From assembly GCA_047967505.1 (NCBI GenBank), contig CM106538.1: a stretch of DNA of 64,000 nt. One strand, 5' to 3'. The notes below the pieces were generated by a model that saw only the letters and a program-made list of their open reading frames with translations, was not told the origin of the DNA and did no database searches. This document shows positions 11,731-50,800 of the stretch, in pieces; the stretch's first letter is position 1; every line of letters starts with the position of its first letter. Source of the DNA: Dipteris shenzhenensis (lineage: Eukaryota). Position numbers and translations under genes: made by a program.

Positions 11731-11963
11731 AAGTATGTGTGGGTGTGTGGATTTGTATGTGTGAGAGCATATTTTTATACTATGGTCTACACCCACTATT
11801 GGGCACTAATGATGTCAGTGGGGATGTCATAGTAGCTAGTCCCTGCTATGCGTGATGGAGTTTATGGTTTTTAATCTTATGAGTGACTCTCGTGAGATTG
11901 AAACTGCACTATGTTGTGTTTTTAGAGGATGAGTTTGGGAATGTTCCTGGATTCATCTAGGTA
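11731..11963. repeat. ~233-bp dispersed non-coding repeat, copy A
   Basis: Aligns end to end with 48417-48649 with scattered substitutions. Confidence 0.9.
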
Positions 11964-11968
11964 TATAT

Positions 11969-12109
11969 GTTTCAAAAGAGAGTTTGATTGAGTATGCTTA
12001 TGCTTTCTAAGTTAGGAATGTAATTTCGCCTCTTTGTAGGAAGTGATAGATGAGTGTAAAGGGTCCATTTAGCTTTTTATGTTTTAAATAAGAGAGAGAG
12101 AGAGAGAGA
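11969..12109 (+). repeat. Pseudo-LTR-like direct repeat, 5' copy, of the Penelope-like element
   Basis: gtttcaaaagagagtttgattgagtatgc...gttttaaataa(GA)n; repeated at 17462-17638. Confidence 0.8.
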
Positions 12110-12110
12110 T

Positions 12111-12858
12111 AGTTTATTAAAGTCTTCGGAAGACCGATGGGTCTATGAGATTAAAAAACTTGATACAATGAGCTTTGGAAGTGGAGCTACTAAATGAGCA
12201 TCCACACCAATGCATAATGCAAAAAATGCAAATTGGCAGTATTAAGTCGTAAGTACAACATAGTACAACAGTCATGTCGATAGCATCATCATCATCATCA
12301 TCATCATCATGAGAATCATCATCATTCTCATCATCAGCAGCAAGACATCAAGATGGATGAGGTAGTGGAGGCATGAGGTCAATAATAGAGCGTTGTTGGT
12401 CCCTCAAGGATGCAGTCTTGGTACGTCTCTTAGTCGTAGCTCTGCATCTAACCAAAATAAGGAGGGGAAGTCCCCAAGTATGATCTGTTTGAGCTATCGG
12501 GTCACAAGCTCCGAGTCACAGTCATGTCGAGGTCTTGTCTCGTGGGGGTTTGTGATCTGGTTGAAAGAACTCCGTGATAGAGCTCTGAGAGGTATCAGTC
12601 GGAGAAGTTTGCTTTTGTCTTCATGCTCAGAGCATTCTCTCGTGGTGTCTAAGCACCTCATAAATGAAACCAACCAAACACTGCTGATCTGGGTAGGAGA
12701 GGAGACGGGCCAAATTTTCATAACTATCTCTGAAGAGGCAATAGAAACGTCCTTGGATCTCATAGTAAACAGGACACCTGAAGATGAAATGCTCCTCTGT
12801 CTCAACCTCCTGCATGTCACACAGTGTGCATATGCGCCTTTGTCGAGGTAACCGCTCT
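12111..12858 (-). mobile_element. RTE-like LINE 3' end (C-terminal CCHC motif and 3' UTR), inserted in a (GA)n tract
   Basis: RLPRQRRICTLCDMQEVETEEHFIFRCPVYY; 3' end ...TTAATAAACT abutting (TC)n on the minus strand; (CAT)n tract at ~12284-12335. Confidence 0.65.
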
Positions 12859-15050
12859 AAACTCCCATTCAAGTCTATCATAAGCCTTGTCAAAGTCAAC
12901 CTTCAAGAAGCATATGTCCTGTTTTGTTTCTCTGGCATACTCACATCCCTCCCAAATGTTGATGATAGCTTTAAGTAAATGTATGCCCTTTATGAAGCCT
13001 TTCAACTCTGGTAGGATCCACTTGGCCATTCTGTTTTTAATCCTCAGAGCCAGAGCTTTAGCAAAGGTTTTATATCTACGGTTGAGCATAGTAAGAGGTC
13101 TCTAGTTCCTTAGCTCAGTCTTATCTCCTTCCTTAGGAATAAGTTTTATAACACCACCATTGATATGTGTAGGCAGGCACCCACTTTCAACACTTTCCTG
13201 CCATAAGAGGAGAAGGTATGGGCCGATAGTGGACTAGAATCTTTTGTAGAATTCAATTGGTAGTCCATCCTCTCTTGGTGTTTTACCATCAGCCATCACC
13301 TTGACAGCTTCAAAAAGCTCCTCTATAGTCAGAGGTTTCTCCAGGTACTTGTTATCAAAGCTGAGAAGAGTGCTTTTTGTAGCTTCCTTGCAAAGTTCTC
13401 TAGCTTTAATCACTTCATTGTCTACTTGAATGGTGCAGGACAGTAAACTCTGAAAATGAAGCTGAATGAGGTCAATGTCCTCCTCATTGGACAGGGCCAA
13501 AGAGTTGTCAGCTTTTCTAAGAAGGGGTACCTCTTCATTAGACCCTTTCCTTCTAATACTTTTGAAGTACTCCTTGGTAGGTCTATCAGCTTTGGCAGCC
13601 TCTGAAGTATACCTTAGAGTCATTTAGAAGAATCTACTCAATCCTAAACTCATTTCTTTTGAGCACCAAGTCAACCTATGCCGGAGGGTCCCCCTGTCTA
13701 GCTAGGGTCTCCAGGGTAGTAATCATGCTCTGAATGATGTCCATCCTCTTGGCCCTAATTTTAGCTCTGTCCTTTCTAGCTTTTTTGAGGAACTTTTGGG
13801 TCTAATCACTGCAGTATACCAGGATTCACTGGCAGAAGGAGACTCAGTGAAAGCCTTGAGCCAAATAAGTTTAACACCTTCTTGAACACTCCTTAAGTCA
13901 AAAAATTTAGGATCATCCTTAAACCATGATGTGGTTTTTTGGCCCAGGCCAAAGTCACACTTGAGAAGGATTGGCTTGTGGTCTGAAAGAAAAAAAGAGG
14001 AAAAAACTCAACTCTGGCAAGAGCTGGTTTGGCTAACTAGATCTTGTGAGACATATATCCGATCAAGTCTGGCCTCTCTTTTGTTGTCCCCCACTTGACT
14101 GTTTGACCATGTGAAGGTGTCTTTCATCCCCATGTCCACTAGACTTAGCTCTTCTTTCAAGTCCTCCTAGCTCTGATGACTGTTCCTTTACCCATCCATC
14201 TGTCCTTGGAGCTTTCCACCATGTTAAAGTCACCAGCCACAAAACATTTATTCCCTGCCAGCAGGAGTGATTCCCAGCTAACCATTCTTTCTTGTGAACT
14301 GTTAGAAGCATGAAGTGACACCACTATGAATGTCTGCCCATGTATCATGCATTTAACCATAATCCATCTCTTCTGTGTATCCACTTCCACATCCAAAATC
14401 CCCTGAGCATAGTTAGATAGTATACCAATTGCTACCCCACCTTGCCCTCCTCATGGCCAGTGAAGTACCATTTCCTTCTCTTATCAATAACAGTCAATCT
14501 CTTCTCCAAAAAAGGACCAGAGACTTTAACTTCTTGCAAAGTAAGGAAAGTAGGAGAAAGAGCATTAGTTCTTAGCCAAAAAGCTAACTCTCCTCCTCTG
14601 CCAGTAGTAAGCCCTCTAACATTGAGTGAGAGGATGGCTATTGGTTTACTTGACATTCTTCTTAGTTCCCTTTCTAGCCTTGGGATTGGGGCTGATTATA
14701 TGAGGGGAGGCATTTTTTCCTTGAGATAGTTTTCTCTTGCTTTGTACTTGAGTAAAAGCCTTACCTTGGTCAGCAGTATCCTTTTCAACCCCCATATGAT
14801 CAACTCCTAGGTCTTCCTCATTGATTTTTGAAGAGGCCATCTCATCCTCTGTGTTTATATCCTCCTCAAAATCTTTTGACCAACCTATTTCAATCTGAGA
14901 GTCAATGTCCAGGTTTTGATTTTTTTTTATATACTCCTCAGTTTCACTGTCTGCCAAGGTGTCAAAAACATTATTCAGAACTATGGTGTCATCAATCATC
15001 CCTTTGCCTTTATCCTGGGGAAGCAAGGGTTTGAAAGGGTTTATCTTTTG
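12859..15050 (-). mobile_element. L1/Tx1-like LINE fragment: ORF1 tail, AP endonuclease and N-terminal RT
   Basis: ILSLNVRGL, LQEVK, VAGDFN, ARLDRIY, SDHKP, DGLPIEFYKRF, YKTFAKALALR, KVDFDKAYDRLEW; many frameshifts. Confidence 0.9.
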
Positions 15051-15059
15051 GAGAAGGAT

Positions 15060-17462
15060 TTTTTCAGTAGAAAGTTGTCCTAGCTCTCTTGCAATCTCAC
15101 ATGTTATTCATGAGTTGCATCCCTCACTTCCTCTTCCTCCACTTCCTCCTCCTTCAATTCCTTTAACTTCCTCAGTTCTAAGAGTTTTTGCTTCTCGAGA
15201 CTATAGAAGAAGACTTCTTTAACTAGATAGATTAATGTCTTTGGGTCTTTTTTCAATAAAAGTTTTTGAAAAATATAATGTTGAAGTTCTTTTTAAACTT
15301 CAATACACTTTGGAAAACTTCTCTTTTGAGGATTTGAACCTAAATAAGCTCCATCTTAAAACTTCATTGGATCGCTCTTAAAAGTAAAAGCTTCCTTTCA
15401 AAGCAAAGAAGTCTATCTAAATAAGGAACTCTTGATTTGTATTTTTACTTCTCCCTCTCTTGACAAGGTAGGCTTAAACTCAATTTTGAAGTCTCTTGAA
15501 GTAATGGATTCTCTCCCACATTTTGTGAGAAGAATTTGGAAGCATCCAGTAGTAGCTTGAAAGTATGTAAAAAGTTTAGGACAAAAGGCTTTCAACTATG
15601 GAGAGATAGGTAAAAGGCATTCAAAATCTTCTATCCTTAGAGAACCTTGTTGTTGTAAAAGTAAGAGATTCCAAAGCTTTATTGATGCTGATTTAGGACA
15701 TGTAGTCATAGCTGATACCTCAATTTTGTCTTCTAGTAACTTAAGAGACCTTTTCATGAAAGGCATGAAATTTGTACTCTTTTAAAGAGTCTTGCCTTTT
15801 AAAAGCTATTGATGATAAGGGAATCTCAAAGTTTGCTTTGCACAATTAGAAGAATGTTTAGGAGTTCAAAATATCTTATCAGGAATGAAAGAGAAGATTT
15901 TGAAGAAAGTTGCTTAAAACTAGAAGTCCCTTCCATTAATTGCTCAAAGCAAAGTAACCATCTTTCTAAAGAAGATGAAACTCTTCTTTAAAAATTCCAT
16001 AGGAATTTTGTCGTTTCTTATATGGACAAATGTTCCAATAACTTTGTTTTTATTTGCAAAAATTTTTACTTAAAATGTCTTTTAAGAGTAGTGAACTCAT
16101 CTACCAAAACTTACGCCCCTGCATTAGTTTCTCAAAAGGATTTGATCTCAAAACACCAGAGTTTTTGTGTCTTTTGGTTTGTTTGCAATCCAAGTATCCC
16201 TTTTCTTTGTGTTGCTTGGAAGTTTCACAAAACTCTAAAAAAGCCAAGATTTATTGCAGTTGCTTGTGAGACTACTTTGACGGATGTCTCTAAATGGCTA
16301 AGCTACTGCTTCAAAGCCATGTTACATAATGTCCATGAACTTTGGAGGGACTTATTAAAGGAGGCAGATGTCCCCTCACACTCAAGCTAGATTTTAAACG
16401 ATTCTGCAGGAGTGATTCCTGTTGTAAAAAAAATTTATTCCTCTTGAAGCATTCAGGAAAAAGAGTCTTTTGTTCTCCTTCAAACCTACGATTTTACTAC
16501 ACTTTACACAAAGATCAAACCAGAAGATCTGAAGTTTAGAATCAAAAAACTAGTGCTGAAGTTTTCAAGCTAAGATTTGACAAAGATAGATGCAAAGTGC
16601 TAAAAGTTGAGAAAACAACTTTATGCTTTGACTTTTTGTGGCTAAAAATTAAAGATCATGACATCAGTTCTAAAAAGAAAAGATCTACAAAAAATGTAAC
16701 TGTTGAAGATGTTTTCTCTTGGATAGATTTTCTTTTAAATAATCTCTACATCACCATAGGTGATTCTTTGTTTCAACAAATTATAGGAATCCCCATGGGC
16801 ACTAATTGTGCCGTCTTTTTTATCGAACTTTTATCTTTTCACTTATGAATTTGAGTTTATGCAACGTCTTATTTCTATCAATACCTGCCCTATCATTTTA
16901 CATAAGATTAGCCAAGTTATGTGTTTTATAGATGATTTATTTGTACTACATGTTCCTGACTTTCAAGACTTTATGTACAAAGATACTTGTGCTTTTGGAG
17001 AAGGAATCTATCCTCGTGACTCTTGTGAACTGAACTACACTTCAAGAGGGGATTCTTGTGTTTTCTTAGATCTTGGACTTTCTCAATCTACCATAGGATT
17101 AGAGGTTGATATATACACTGATAAACGTGAACAACCTGAATATAGTGGTTTACACATTATAAAAATGCCTCACATTGACTCAAAACATTTTTAATTTGGC
17201 AAATTATGGAGTCATTTCTTCCCAATTCCATAGGTTTTCCTGCCTTTGTACAACAACTGAGTCTTTTATCACTCAATGTAGTAATTTGAGCACTTTACTA
17301 TTACACAAGAGGTATAATCCAAGAAAATTAATGAAAAAAGTGCGCACATTCTTAGATATGAAGTCTTTTATCTATGGTATATCGGCCTTAAGTATGTTTC
17401 GAATGATTGATCATAAGCTAAAAACAAAAAGCGGGGAGCTAAATAGCCCGTTTTTCTTTTAG
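15060..17462 (+). mobile_element. Penelope-like retroelement (CxC-linker, Naiad/Chlamys-type) RT ORF, decayed, 5'-truncated
   Basis: LDKVGLNSIL...LP...PVV..KY..LGQKAFNY, EPCCCKS...LGHVVIAD...LRDLFMKGMKF, DKCSNNFVFICK, KFHK..KPRFIA, TYDFTTLYTKI, QQIIGIPMGTNCA, FIDDLF, GIYP, FLDL, DKR, YGVISSQFHRF. Confidence 0.85.
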
Positions 17463-17590
17463 TTTCAAAAGAGAGTTTGATTGAGTATGCTTGTGCTTTC
17501 TAAGTTAGGAATGTAATTTTGCCTCTTTGTTCCTAGGAAGCGATATATAAGTGTAAAGGGTCCATTTGGCTTTTTATGTTTTAAATAAGA

Positions 17591-17638
<48 letters not shown>
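17462..17638 (+). repeat. Pseudo-LTR-like direct repeat, 3' copy, ending in (GA)n
   Basis: Begins at the stop codon of the Penelope-like RT frame; matches 11969-12109. Confidence 0.8.
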
Positions 17639-17642
<4 letters not shown>

Positions 17643-17757
17643 ATTCTTGTTTTTTGGAAGATTTTGTTTCTTGACTTGCTTCTTTATTTTTGCTTAGTCA
17701 CCTTCTTCCTTTCTTCTTTATTTCTTGTTTTCTTTCTCTCTCTTTTTTTTTTTTTTT

Positions 17758-17880
17758 GACATACTTTAGTAAGCACTAGGTTTGCCCGAGAGACTCCGCG
17801 AGTCTTTAGAAACCTAGTATAGTTGCTTGTGCTTGGGCACTGATGACGACATAAGTGTTGCTTTGCTTGCTCAGTATGTC
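17758..17880 (+). ncRNA. Candidate structured cis-RNA (hammerhead-core-like, pseudoknotted) in the Penelope-like 3' region
   Basis: Outer stem gacatact..agtaagca / tgcttgct..agtatgtc; actaggT / GAA-Acctagt; tgcccgag / cttgggca followed by CTGATGA; hairpin agactc-cgc-gagtct. Confidence 0.4.
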
Positions 17881-18653
17881 TTCCTTTCGTTTTTCATTAA
17901 AGTTTTTGTTTACCTCTATTTTTTGTTCTCTTTTGTTTTCTCTTTTATTTTCTGTGTAGTTTTTTTGTCTTTAGAACAACAAAAAAATCTAAATTTGTAT
18001 GATTGGACATATTCTAGTCTTACAATGGTATATATACAAAGGTGGTGTGTTTTTATCCCTCAGTTAGAAGCACAGTGATAAAGGCTAGCACTAAGTGTTG
18101 TATGTGCACATGTAAGCAATGATATGGCTAGCACACGTGTTTGCTTTCCCACCTAAACACCCACACCCACACTTGAACTTTCAACTACATTGCTGAACAT
18201 GCAAGCTCATACATGCAAAAGCACAAACCCCCCCCCCCCGGGAAGAAAAAAAGGCATGCACATATGCACTCGCATGCTCATGCATATACACCCCTGTGTG
18301 CACACATACACATGCACCCATGAAAGTTGCACAAATGTATGTGCCTTACATGCATGTGTGCACTTCCACTCTTACCCTTACCTTCCCAATTCCTTGGGTT
18401 TCATAATATAAGCCAAAATGACAACATTTGTAGGGTGAATCATGGGAATGGTCATAGTCAAGAGCATGCATGTCTTGCTCTTCTTTGTATCATTTGCCAT
18501 GATCTAAGTGGATAGAAGTGATGATAGCACCCATGGCAAAATGACCCTAATTATAGGAGGTTTGAGGGAATGGCATTGGTTCCATTCGTCTAATGCAATG
18601 GGCAGAATGCCAATAGTACTATTCTTCGCAACCTCCTATAAGGATGTGGGGAG

Positions 18654-18658
<5 letters not shown>

Positions 18659-18730
<72 letters not shown>
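18659..18730. repeat. (CT)n(AT)n compound microsatellite
   Basis: Directly visible. Confidence 0.95.
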
Positions 18731-47800: not shown

Positions 47801-50800
47801 AAAGGGAAATGAGGCCCCCTTCTTGGAACCGTGAGAAACTAATGTTTGCCATCATTCTCATAAACATGGAATTCCGAAGCTGCTACTGGATCATCAGAGG
47901 CTGGTTAATCATCAATCTCTGAGAATCATGCTGAACTTTGCCCCTGATTTGGCCTTGAGGTTTGCATACCCTCAGAAGCTCCAGAGTCCGCTTTTCACCA
48001 CATAGATAGCACAGATTCTTTTTGAGGGCCTGAGATAATTGCTTAACCGTCTTCTCCGCAAGTCATCCTTGGAGGGAATTGTCTTGGTGTGTTGAGTTGA
48101 AATTGTTTGTTTCACTTACCAATGAGCAACAAAATTTAGGCCGAATACGCACTTGTATGGGTTGAAGGAGATTTGAGTCTCCGTATTTGTAGAGCACCTT
48201 CTTCAGGCACTATAAGGGATAAACTACACCCTTCAAGTGTTCAAGATAGTGACTAGAGAATCATATTCGACCGGCATACTCTTGAGGAATTTGTCAAGAG
48301 AGCCTCCCACATAGCCTTTACTGTCATGAGATTAGACACATGATGAATGAGTCTACCCTTCACCTCCGGAGTGCCAACATAAACTCGGTACAAAGACTTT
48401 GTATAAATGGATGCTCAAGTATCTGTGGGGGTGTGGATTTGTATGTGTGAGAGCATATTGTTATACTATGGTCTACACCCACTGTTGGGCGCTGATGACG
48501 TCAATGGGGATGTCATAGTAGCTAGTCCCTGCTATGCGTGATGAAGTTTATGGTTTTCAACCTTATGAGTGACTATCATGAGATTGAAACTGCACTATGT
48601 TGTGTTTTTAGAGGATGAGTTTGGGAATGTTCCTGGATTCATCTAGGTACGTGATGAATGAGGCACTTTGTGATGCATAGCGTAATGGACTGTGCTTTCT
48701 CATCATCATCGATGTTGTCCTTGCCATTGATGTTGAATCTCCTTGTTCACTTCACGATTGACCACACCCTTTGACATGAGCAAGTAACAAATGGAATCTG
48801 CCATGCGTGAAAACCAGTGCCATCAAATTTGTCCACATAATGGGTTCTTTTGCCATGGCGAGAAGGTCTTACCAGGTTGTAGACCGCATGGCAGTGTCTA
48901 TGGGTTTATACAACACAAAGCACATGAGCACACTAGAAGATATGGGCTAAAAAACAATGAAGCATTAGAAAAGACAAAGCTGCTTTTGTTGCGGTGCAAA
49001 CAATTCACTGTAATAACACAGTCAAAATTACAGCTGAGCTGCCCAAATAACAACCTTGTAATTTGGAAATAAGAGGCCTTAAAGGACTAAAACTTTTCTG
49101 CCACGTGTAATCAAATGAGAACCTTAGCCAAGAAACTTTGGCCAAAAAACTCTTCAGAGAAGAGACCGTCGTTGTGGCAGAAAAACATCAAGAAGGCTTG
49201 TTGCAGAAAACCTTGCTGAAGCAGAAAACACAGGGTCATAGTCCTTCTGTGTGTAACAGAGGGGCTAGTTTAGTTGGCTAGTTAATTGACTTTATAGTTA
49301 GTGCGATGTAATCTAGGCTAAGTAGGTGATGCCACGTCACACTTTTTGGGTAGTATCCCACATACATAGTTCTAAAAAACCTGCTTTAATTCCATAAAAA
49401 GCCTGGCTGCCCCATTTGTACACAAATTATCAGCTATCACCAGCTTGTGAACAAATTGGATCTGTACAGCAGGGCTCATTGCTCAAGCTAGAATTCAATA
49501 ATGAAATAACACTTTCTGTCCTTGTGCAGCCCATCACAAGTTTCTGTCGTAGGTCTAGCTCATGACTTGCATCCTTCCTAACTTTTGAGAGGTACTCTTT
49601 GTTTAGTTCTGCATTGCAGCTCTAAAGTAATGAATGTAGCTGCTCTTGCCTAGGCCTCTTGTTAGGGAAGAAGTTCCTGCTTAATCTGCTCTAATATTGG
49701 AGTTGATCTGCCCCAAGATTGTCCACTGGTCAGGGATAGCCAGAGATAGCCAGAGTTAGGGCAAGTTCTGTTTCATTGGTATTAGAGCATAAAAATTGTG
49801 GGAAATTGTAGAAAAATCATGTCCAATTCTTTTGAAATTTGCAACATATGTTTGTTTGTAAGCCTATGGCACACCTCTGTGCAAATTTTTGTCGTTAAAA
49901 GATGTTTCAATCTCTGGATTCCGTGTGGGCCTGTAAATAGGTTGAAAATTCAATGTTATCAAGTTTGAATTTTTTTTTGCATCATTGTGTGTTATCAAGT
50001 TTGATTTTTTTTTTGCATCATTGTGATCGGAATGACCTCTTGCATCAAAGCCCTAGGTCATTTTTGAATTGGAGCTGTATTTGGTGTCTGAAAGCTGGAA
50101 GGCTATTTCACAAATGTGGTGCTACCTCTTGGAGATCTGAGTCGCAATTGTATTCTGAAGAGCTGTACTATGTGACATTGTAATTGAAGCTGATTTGCCC
50201 CAAATTTTGGAGCAATTTCTAAAAAACTGTTGATCTCTCTAAATCCTAGCTGATCTCCAGAAATTTTGGCATTTGTCTATTCGATTCTCTACTATGCTTC
50301 ATTGAATATAGTATATGCTATAAGATTTGGGAAATTTTTGAATTCGGATCAGAACAGTGAGTTCTCTGTATTCCTAATACCTACAAAGATTCTGGAAACC
50401 AGTTGAGAAGGTAAGTATTGAGTGATTCAGACCCTAGGATGGAGGGTGAACAAATGGAAAATTCAATTAGAGCTGGTGGCATTGCAATGTTGGGATTGGG
50501 ATCAATAGCAGGAGAGCAGGCTGTAGCTTCAACTTTGAAGTAAGGAGCCTGTAGGGAAACAAATCAAGTTTCTATGGCGGTATCCAGGAAGATCACATTC
50601 AATCAGGTCAGGAGCAGTTAATTCGAGGTTGTTTGGGCCTTGTGCTTTGTCCTTGATTCAGATGAGAAATTCCAGCTCCGGAGGGATCTAATAGGAGGGC
50701 TCACTATATTTAAGGGGGGGGGGGGGGAGAGAGAGAGAGAGAGACGATAAAGCAAAATATCTTCCACAGGGAACAATTCGGAAAAATACCAGTTCTGAAA

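Follow-up and report, generated by a model that had tools for sequence, protein, structure and literature searches.

Hammerheads of Penelope-Like Elements and Their Permuted Relatives

In the survey of Penelope-like elements by Craig et al. (2021; PMC8557442), Naiad and most Chlamys elements, which carry an N-terminal endonuclease (EN), are described as lacking canonical hammerhead ribozymes, with some families of Chara and Selaginella named as exceptions, and the hammerheads that the survey lists are all of the block order C-G-S. According to its Files S2 and S1, most hammerheads of Penelope-like elements lie 100–330 nt from the end of the element, and eight Naiad families carry the flag ‘HHR_half_core’, which stands for CUGANGA in the 3′ untranslated region (UTR) with GAAA 35–50 nt away on either side (Craig et al., 2021). 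Here, we describe a motif with hammerhead boxes and helices in a 64,000-nt stretch of Dipteris shenzhenensis DNA (GenBank assembly GCA_047967505.1, contig CM106538.1; hereafter the window), located downstream of a decayed Penelope-like reverse transcriptase (RT). The reading that we favor, with a probability of roughly 55%, is that the motif is a structured, non-cleaving 3′-terminal module of a retroelement that either resembles or descends from a non-circularly permuted hammerhead of type SGC.

The permuted hammerheads were described by Eckert et al. (2023; PMC10085705), who split the ribozyme into three blocks: block S, containing the cleavage site and the stem III and stem I sides that adjoin it; block G, containing GAAA plus stem II and stem III sides; and block C, containing CUGAnGA and sides of stems I and II. 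Among the natural non-circular permutations that they report, type SGC is represented by 583 predicted sequences, type CSG by two and type GCS by one doubtful case, and five type SGC sequences were found to cleave at the predicted site (Eckert et al., 2023). Stem II of type SGC joins bases 5′ of GAAA to bases 3′ of CUGAnGA, and disruptive and compensatory mutations showed a requirement for stem I, stem II, stem III, and a fourth helix, which ties stem I to stem II; in the SGC-3 construct, disruption of stem II abolished cleavage (Eckert et al., 2023). The type SGC motif HRIMA-1 and its variants came mainly from metatranscriptomes (Eckert et al., 2023), and among the papers listed by a limited literature search on type SGC and other non-circular hammerheads no report was found of an SGC permutation in a retroelement or in a eukaryotic genome.

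A Hammerhead-Like Core in S-G-C Order

The motif lies within a 123-base unit on the plus strand of the window (17758–17880), in T-rich surroundings and in the same orientation as the upstream RT open reading frame (ORF); all coordinates are those of the window, and the letters were read directly from it. The first half of block S (17775–17782) is composed of the 5′ strand of stem III (17775–17781, with U16.1 at 17781) followed by U17782 as H17. ACTAGGT at 17775–17781 is the exact reverse complement of ACCTAGT at 17812–17818, giving a stem III of seven pairs in which the last A of GAAA (A17812) is paired with T17781 as the A15.1-U16.1 pair. T17782 is the sole unpaired base and yields a GUU triplet with a predicted cut 3′ of 17782; it occupies the H17 position, at which a hammerhead requires a base other than G. 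The second half of block S (17783–17790) is the 5′ strand of stem I, in which TGCCCGAG pairs with CTTGGGCA at 17832–17839 through eight pairs, one of them G-U, and which crosses stem III. Block G (17809–17818) consists of GAAA at 17809–17812 and the 3′ strand of stem III at 17812–17818, with no stem II strand 5′ of it, while block C (17832–17846) consists of the 3′ strand of stem I and CTGATGA at 17840–17846, which supplies the core box CUGANGA (C3 to A9). Stems I and III both abut the core in register and without spacers.

Two local hairpins and a closing helix complete the unit. Hairpin H1 (AGACTC-cgc-GAGTCT, 17791–17805; six pairs, loop CGC) follows block S and is itself followed by the linker UUA (17806–17808). 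Hairpin H2 (CGACA-taag-TGTTG, 17847–17860; five pairs, loop UAAG) lies directly 3′ of CUGAUGA, at the place of the stem II hairpin of a type I or type III hammerhead, but is followed by CUUU and not by GAAA. The outer stem joins 17758–17774 to 17865–17880 around a bulged C17872. The first-pass annotation of this DNA had the stems, boxes, GUU site, and hairpins exactly in place, and it was right about the closing stem, although this has 15 pairs (8 + 7) in the minimum free energy (MFE) structure and not the approximately 16 that were claimed. The linker between stems III and I bears the hexamer TGCTTG in tandem, at 17824–17835; one contig of the public run X3, considered below, has a single copy, and the linker is thus 13 or 7 nt long depending on the copy. 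The T-rich tracts on the two sides of the unit, 17704–17757 and 17879–17933, are alike (73% over 55 bases, E 0.04).

The blocks run in the order S (17775–17790), G (17809–17818), C (17832–17846). It had been noted that this order falls outside the circular permutations known as types I, II, and III, which is correct, but it is not an unprecedented one, since it is that of type SGC, a topology already described and validated at the bench (Eckert et al., 2023). The motif shares with type SGC the block order, the crossing of stems I and III, and all core letters, and its 13-nt linker between stems III and I falls inside the 0–15 nt that the authors allow. It differs from type SGC in having no stem II (at most two weak pairs) and in carrying an 18-nt, hairpin-bearing gap before GAAA; it also resides in a plant genomic repeat, whereas type SGC is mainly metatranscriptomic.

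Absence of Stem II

The published RNAMotif descriptor for type SGC specifies, from 5′ to 3′, stem III of 4–7 pairs, UH, stem I of 4–7 pairs, 0–8 single-stranded nt, stem II of 2–6 pairs, CGAAA, stem III, 0–15 single-stranded nt, stem I, CUGAUGA(U)G, and stem II (Eckert et al., 2023). Re-implemented for the window scan, it gave 0 matches on either strand. The motif fails in three respects, all of which concern stem II: CGAAA is required where the window reads AGAAA, CUGAUGAG is required where it reads CUGAUGAC, and at most 14 nt are allowed between stem I and GAAA, against the 18 nt, mostly H1, found here. As the first-pass annotation had stated, a canonical stem II is absent: positions 10.1 and 11.1 are C17847 and A17808, a C/A mismatch in place of the G-C that the descriptor wants, and when both positions are freed and the linker is widened to 25 nt, a match is obtained only through a two-pair ‘stem II’ (G17848-U17807 and A17849-U17806). 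Both of the would-be stem II strands are tied up in the local hairpins H1 and H2. Because stem II fails the descriptor, we assign the motif neither to the type SGC hammerheads nor to any other hammerhead type.

Other ways of supplying the helix were considered and rejected. A four-pair alternative, UAAG at 17852–17855 with UUUA at 17805–17808, would place a 5-nt bulge after CUGAUGA, which type SGC does not tolerate. The earlier suggestion of a hammerhead acting as a dimer or in trans falls as well, for the same two strands are by eye unable to pair, whichever molecule they belong to. Inspection by eye also ruled out type I and type II hammerhead registers, a C/D-box small nucleolar RNA (snoRNA), in that no box D follows, and an H/ACA snoRNA, in that there is neither a hinge nor an ACA. 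Ribozymes resembling that of hepatitis delta virus (HDV) are nested pseudoknots with the order P1-5′, P2-5′, P3 hairpin, P1-3′, P4 hairpin, P2-3′. This class was likewise rejected by eye, as the second crossing helix of the motif closes before H2 and not after it, and Rfam gave no match.

Rfam searches returned no match at gathering score over the whole window and no match to hammerhead or any other RNA family at E ≤ 10 over 17300–18300, a weak test for hammerheads given that its models cannot represent the S-G-C order. The expectation that standard searches would miss the motif is thereby borne out.

Predicted Folding and the Prospect of Cleavage

The plus strand of 17750–17890 has an MFE of -45.8 kcal/mol (z -4.12), and 0 of 200 shuffled sequences fold as well; the minus strand has a z of -3.75. 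Stem I crosses stem III and creates a pseudoknot, and it is for this reason that it is missing from the nested MFE structure, which instead extends stem III by pairing A17810-A17811 with T17782-T17783. Two bases of GAAA and the U of the cleavage site are thereby buried. Nested folding with GAAA paired has an energy of -44.6 kcal/mol, against -39.9 kcal/mol with stem I forced, a cost of 4.7 kcal/mol; in context, stem I contributes -10.5 kcal/mol and stem III -7.2 kcal/mol.

The RNA as it stands most likely does not self-cleave, and the missing stem II is the likely cause. The opposite view would be that the motif is an active sub-variant of the S-G-C hammerhead, in which the closed hairpin H2, stacked on the core, replaces stem II, and the GAAA strand arrives from the loop of stem I via H1, so that the core would be junction-like, with a broken backbone between 11.1 and G12. 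All 11 core letters are in register, as are H17 and the A15.1-U16.1 pair, H2 begins exactly at 10.1, the chance expectation for the core is very low, and the linkers (UUA, 13 nt, and CUUU) seem, on geometric reasoning, long enough. Other non-circular permutations do cleave (Eckert et al., 2023), and the hammerhead of the Chara element PLE-X1 shares with the motif the C after CUGAUGA and the A before GAA (Craig et al., 2021). We nevertheless consider activity of this kind very improbable. No known hammerhead dispenses with a stem II joining blocks C and G, the stems are kept in 583 of 583 type SGC sequences, and SGC-3 was killed by disruption of stem II (Eckert et al., 2023); in addition, the MFE structure sequesters GAAA and the cleavage site, and some copies of the repeat family described in the following section are without block S or half of block C.

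The Motif as Part of a Dispersed Repeat Family

Contigs of four public runs (X1–X4, from organisms A, B, and C) were compared with 17645–18640 at no less than 80% likeness, with 17645–17764 skipped as repeat. Contig cover was nil or nearly nil at 17645–17780 and at 18053–18640, which is no sign of absence. None of the public runs listed as containing the sequence is an RNA run, and all contain small shares of it. The matching contig records numbered 29, 37, 77, and 146 in X1 to X4, respectively, and all fall within 17791–18036 on the plus strand, which is accordingly the segment common to a many-copy repeat family, with a 3′ boundary at approximately 18025–18036 and varying 5′ break points. 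Several contigs, among them 17816–17953, 17816–18033, and 17830–17922, extend over 17880/17881 and enter the T-rich flank, and a miniature inverted-repeat transposable element or a separate insertion of the 123-nt unit was rejected on the ground that contigs of other copies cross this junction uninterrupted.

For many contigs the match ends at 18025, 18033, or 18036 and is followed by mutually unlike continuations; the family therefore has a common 3′ end, near 18033. The 5′ ends of the matches are scattered (17791, 17794, 17802, and 17816, with several more in 17962–17999), and this is the pattern of a 5′-truncated retroposed family. The motif lies 150–275 nt from the 3′ end of the family. 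Loose ends at 17794 (X4) and 17809 (X1) run upstream into sequence that is unlike block S of the window and, by eye, unable to pair with either of stems I and III; in one X4 contig, 17842 is joined to 17983, so that half of CUGAUGA, H2, and the 3′ strand of the outer stem are lost. A 693-nt contig of X3 extends some 590 nt upstream of 17830, and its first 30 letters upstream match H1 to GAAA with changes and with one TGCTTG copy fewer.

Across the four runs, no variant is listed at 17832–17846 or 17809–17812, but the neighboring positions are equally invariant and the boxes are not singled out. The presence of the same letters in other copies means that the family at large is also without stem II. 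All three changes listed in the stems of H1 and H2, namely A17801>G (H1), C17847>T (H2), and A17851>G (H2), keep a G-U pair; they are one-sided transitions that preserve pairing on the plus strand only, which offers mild support for an RNA-level fold on that strand. In the 3′ strand of stem III, most contigs have C at 17815 (T17815>C) and some have A at 17817 (G17817>A), and these changes would break stem III unless 17778 and 17776 are also changed, the listed variants covering only the 3′ strands. At the bulged C17872, nearly every other copy has A.

Searches for further copies were negative. By self-BLAST the motif is single-copy within the window, even at word size 7; an exact 23-mer of the C-block stretch had 0 matches in metagenome_contigs and 0 in viral_contigs, and one of the family's 3′-terminal stretch had 0 in metagenome_contigs and 0 in genome_contigs. 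The minus-strand ORF across the motif gave no protein candidate, and the plus-strand ORF at 17818–18075 had 0 matches among 1.84 billion representatives. Downstream of the end of the repeat, the window contains a C12 run (18228–18240) and a compound (CT)n(TA)n microsatellite (18660–18730).

The Upstream Penelope-Like Element

A decayed, 5′-truncated Penelope-like ORF precedes the motif on the plus strand (15420–17462, stop codon at 17460–17462), comprising the RT and the CxC linker and interrupted by several frameshifts. The best protein matches to the ORF pieces at 15420–17459 are 61–69% identical, and the closest named relative is a hypothetical protein of the fern Ceratopteris richardii (62% identity). 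By tblastn with relatives P0004–P0013, the window covers approximately residues 342–1008 of proteins of about 1030–1105 aa; more distant relatives, of 1022–1285 aa, can be aligned only over about this range. The CxC column of the window frame aligns with six longer relatives, and a GIY-YIG domain was found above the Pfam cut-off in one relative (P0010, residues 95–191) and below it in another (P0011), with no match in five others; Pfam gave no matches on the ORF pieces of the window itself. Relative to these proteins, the window copy begins near residue 342, and the N-terminal GIY-YIG region is absent from it. The CxC motif is diagnostic of the Naiad/Chlamys clade (Craig et al., 2021). Because this motif aligns and a full-length relative carries GIY-YIG, the ORF is assigned, from its predicted protein, to a frameshifted, 5′-truncated Penelope-like element of the N-terminal-EN clade, in a plant and without its endonuclease part. 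The first-pass annotation had spoken of a Penelope-like element and had pointed out that Naiad and Chlamys were described as lacking canonical hammerheads, as is indeed stated for Naiad and most Chlamys elements by Craig et al. (2021).

The ORF is followed by a 148-bp 3′ UTR block, R2 (17462–17609, delimited by self-BLAST), that runs into an (AG)n microsatellite at approximately 17588–17639. Roughly 120 bases separate the (AG)n run from the start of the motif, which lies some 300 bases beyond the stop codon. R2 recurs once in the window, at 11969–12112, 5.5 kb upstream, with 92% identity, and both copies end in (AG)n. Past this point the two loci share nothing: alignment of 12105–12700 with 17630–18100 gave a score of 29, where shuffled sequences averaged 31. 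The claim that the motif lies in the 3′ region of a Penelope-like element is plausible from its downstream position and shared orientation, but finds no echo in the second R2 copy. It is nonetheless probable that the repeat family is the 3′ UTR of this Penelope-like element itself.

The recurrence of R2 could represent the remnant of a pseudo-long terminal repeat (pLTR) or a non-autonomous element with a common 3′ end. Between the two copies lies other sequence, including minus-strand ORFs; two of these frames (13234–13623, 129 aa; 14646–15107, 153 aa) have no Pfam match at E ≤ 0.1 and may belong to another decayed mobile element. The upstream R2 copy directly follows R1, a 233-bp repeat found at 11731–11963 and 48417–48649, whose copies are 94% identical and have a strong predicted fold (z -4.27). 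Within R1, a stretch of 19 bases agrees with block C of the motif at 17 positions, and a local hairpin follows the box, which reads CTGATGA in the 48492 copy and CTAATGA in the other. No Rfam family matches R1 at E ≤ 10, and the descriptor scans show no hammerhead register in it.

The decayed state of the element suits the view that the motif is the relic of a once-active SGC or type III hammerhead whose stem II was lost, either by mutation or by some small rearrangement. In its favor, the element is frameshifted and 5′-truncated, GAAA with the 3′ strand of stem III would, if placed after H2, give a complete type III hammerhead, the position is the one usual for hammerheads of Penelope-like elements, and eight Naiad families are known with ‘HHR_half_core’ (Craig et al., 2021). 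Such a relic is quite unlikely, though: in other copies from the four runs the letters that flank GAAA and follow CUGAUGA are unchanged, no intact ancestor turned up, and a shift of about 10 nt is an uncommon type of mutation.

Chance Expectation

CTGATGA is not enriched in the window, where 19 sites were observed against 15.7 expected. A descriptor indifferent to block order required, within 200 bases, CUGANGA, a directly adjoining stem I (7 or more pairs, no more than one of them G-U), U followed by H, and a directly adjoining stem III (6 or more Watson-Crick pairs) with GAAA as its closure; across both strands of the window it finds a single site, namely the motif at 17775–17846. On first-order Markov sequence it matched in 1/150 and 1/331 window-equivalents (2/481), and at the observed strength (stem I of at least 8 pairs, stem III of at least 7) in 0/331. 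An analytic estimate suggests that a motif in S-G-C order at the observed strength would arise about 1e-5 times per 64-kb window, and the joint coincidence is much rarer if a Penelope-like RT just upstream is demanded as well. A rate of that size is rare for one window, but it is not negligible across very many windows.

These figures bear on whether the motif is pure coincidence, such that a palindrome-rich, T-rich repeat has placed the boxes beside complementary runs with no function at the RNA level. Several observations agree with this: the two strands fold about equally (z -4.1 and -3.75), the box is not enriched, GAAA is merely the complement of local TTT(C), the stable nested fold has no need of stem I, and an event of about 1e-5 per window would be expected somewhere if enough windows are considered. 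Coincidence is nevertheless unlikely, given that no simulated window-equivalent of 331 reached the observed strength, that the adjoining Penelope-like RT makes the joint event so much rarer, and that the changes in H1 and H2 preserve wobble pairing on the plus strand only. It also has to accommodate a non-collinear complementarity that extends over all 33 bases of 17758–17790, each of which pairs with one of three downstream segments. A simple inverted duplication was rejected as a full explanation, as these three complementary segments are not collinear.

Comparison With Hammerheads and Structured RNAs of Retroelements

As with the canonical type I hammerheads of Penelope-like elements, the motif is located beside a Penelope-like RT and a few hundred bases from a 3′ end. 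The canonical ribozymes have the order C-G-S, with a true stem II hairpin lying between their boxes and a very small stem III (Craig et al., 2021); the motif, in contrast, has the order S-G-C, a long stem III, and no stem II. A second resemblance is to the Naiad ‘HHR_core’ and ‘HHR_half_core’ annotations, in which CUGANGA occurs in the 3′ UTR of elements of the N-terminal-EN clade and GAAA at a distance of tens of bases, possibly upstream (Craig et al., 2021). As described in the survey, to which this comparison is confined, those annotations are strings only, come from animal elements, and are fitted to no descriptor; in the motif, unlike them, each of the two boxes adjoins helices exactly in register.

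Frangieh et al. (2024; PMC11167929) report that RNA structure and internal initiation are important in Penelope-like elements. The initiation stem-loop that they describe in an anole element differs in location, lying at the pLTR/ORF start and outside any hammerhead-like fold (Frangieh et al., 2024).

A Probable Structured 3′-Terminal Module

The favored reading, a structured and non-cleaving 3′-terminal module, draws these observations together. Stems I and III are good and stem II is absent, the bases that would form it appearing locked in two hairpins, and the lowest-energy fold is predicted to bury GAAA and the U of the cleavage site in an extended helix. The stable multi-helix fold belongs to the 3′-terminal approximately 280 bases of a dispersed, 5′-truncation-prone family that ends near 18033 and begins about 300 bases 3′ of the ORF stop codon in a decayed Penelope-like element of the CxC type. 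At 150–275 nt from the 3′ end, the motif fits the place usual for hammerheads of Penelope-like elements (Craig et al., 2021). The module may be a mere look-alike of type SGC or a disabled descendant of it.

Its role would then probably be structural, as a folded 3′ module of the template RNA recognized by the RT during target-primed reverse transcription. The 3′ UTR of the R2 retrotransposon, which is distinct from the repeat block called R2 above, is a structured RNA that is recognized by the RT of this non-LTR element for target-primed reverse transcription. By analogy, the stable folded module near the common 3′ terminus of a 5′-truncation-prone family may be likened to such RT-recognized 3′ UTRs.

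Several points weigh against this reading. A full core with an eight-pair stem I and a seven-pair stem III is rare by chance (0/331), and its occurrence beside the one retroelement class known for hammerheads argues for true ancestry or function. H2 starts exactly at 10.1, as a real stem II would, and CUGAUGA and GAAA are without variants in four runs, though their neighbors are equally invariant. The non-collinear pairing of 17758–17790 is left unexplained by simple inverted duplication. Finally, both the recognition by RT and the connection between the ORF and the repeat family are links that we infer.

Implications for the N-Terminal-Endonuclease Clade

No retroelement class is more closely tied to hammerheads than the Penelope-like elements, and the reported lack of hammerheads in the N-terminal-EN clade has left open whether transposition in these elements needs a ribozyme. 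Non-circular hammerhead permutations were described in 2023, after the survey of Craig et al. (2021). Were the motif an active variant, it would represent the first case of non-circular hammerhead permutation both for eukaryotic genomes and for Penelope-like elements, and would hint that ‘hammerhead-less’ Naiad and Chlamys elements, including those flagged ‘HHR_half_core’, carry permuted ribozymes that were invisible to the descriptors of that time. The window copy fails the stem II requirement, and its value is therefore that of a lead and a caution, not of a discovery. As a lead, it makes descriptors for the permuted types SGC, CSG, and GCS relevant to the 3′ UTRs of Naiad and Chlamys elements, and a permuted core in the 3′ region of an N-terminal-EN element would make the question of ribozyme need in this clade a testable one.

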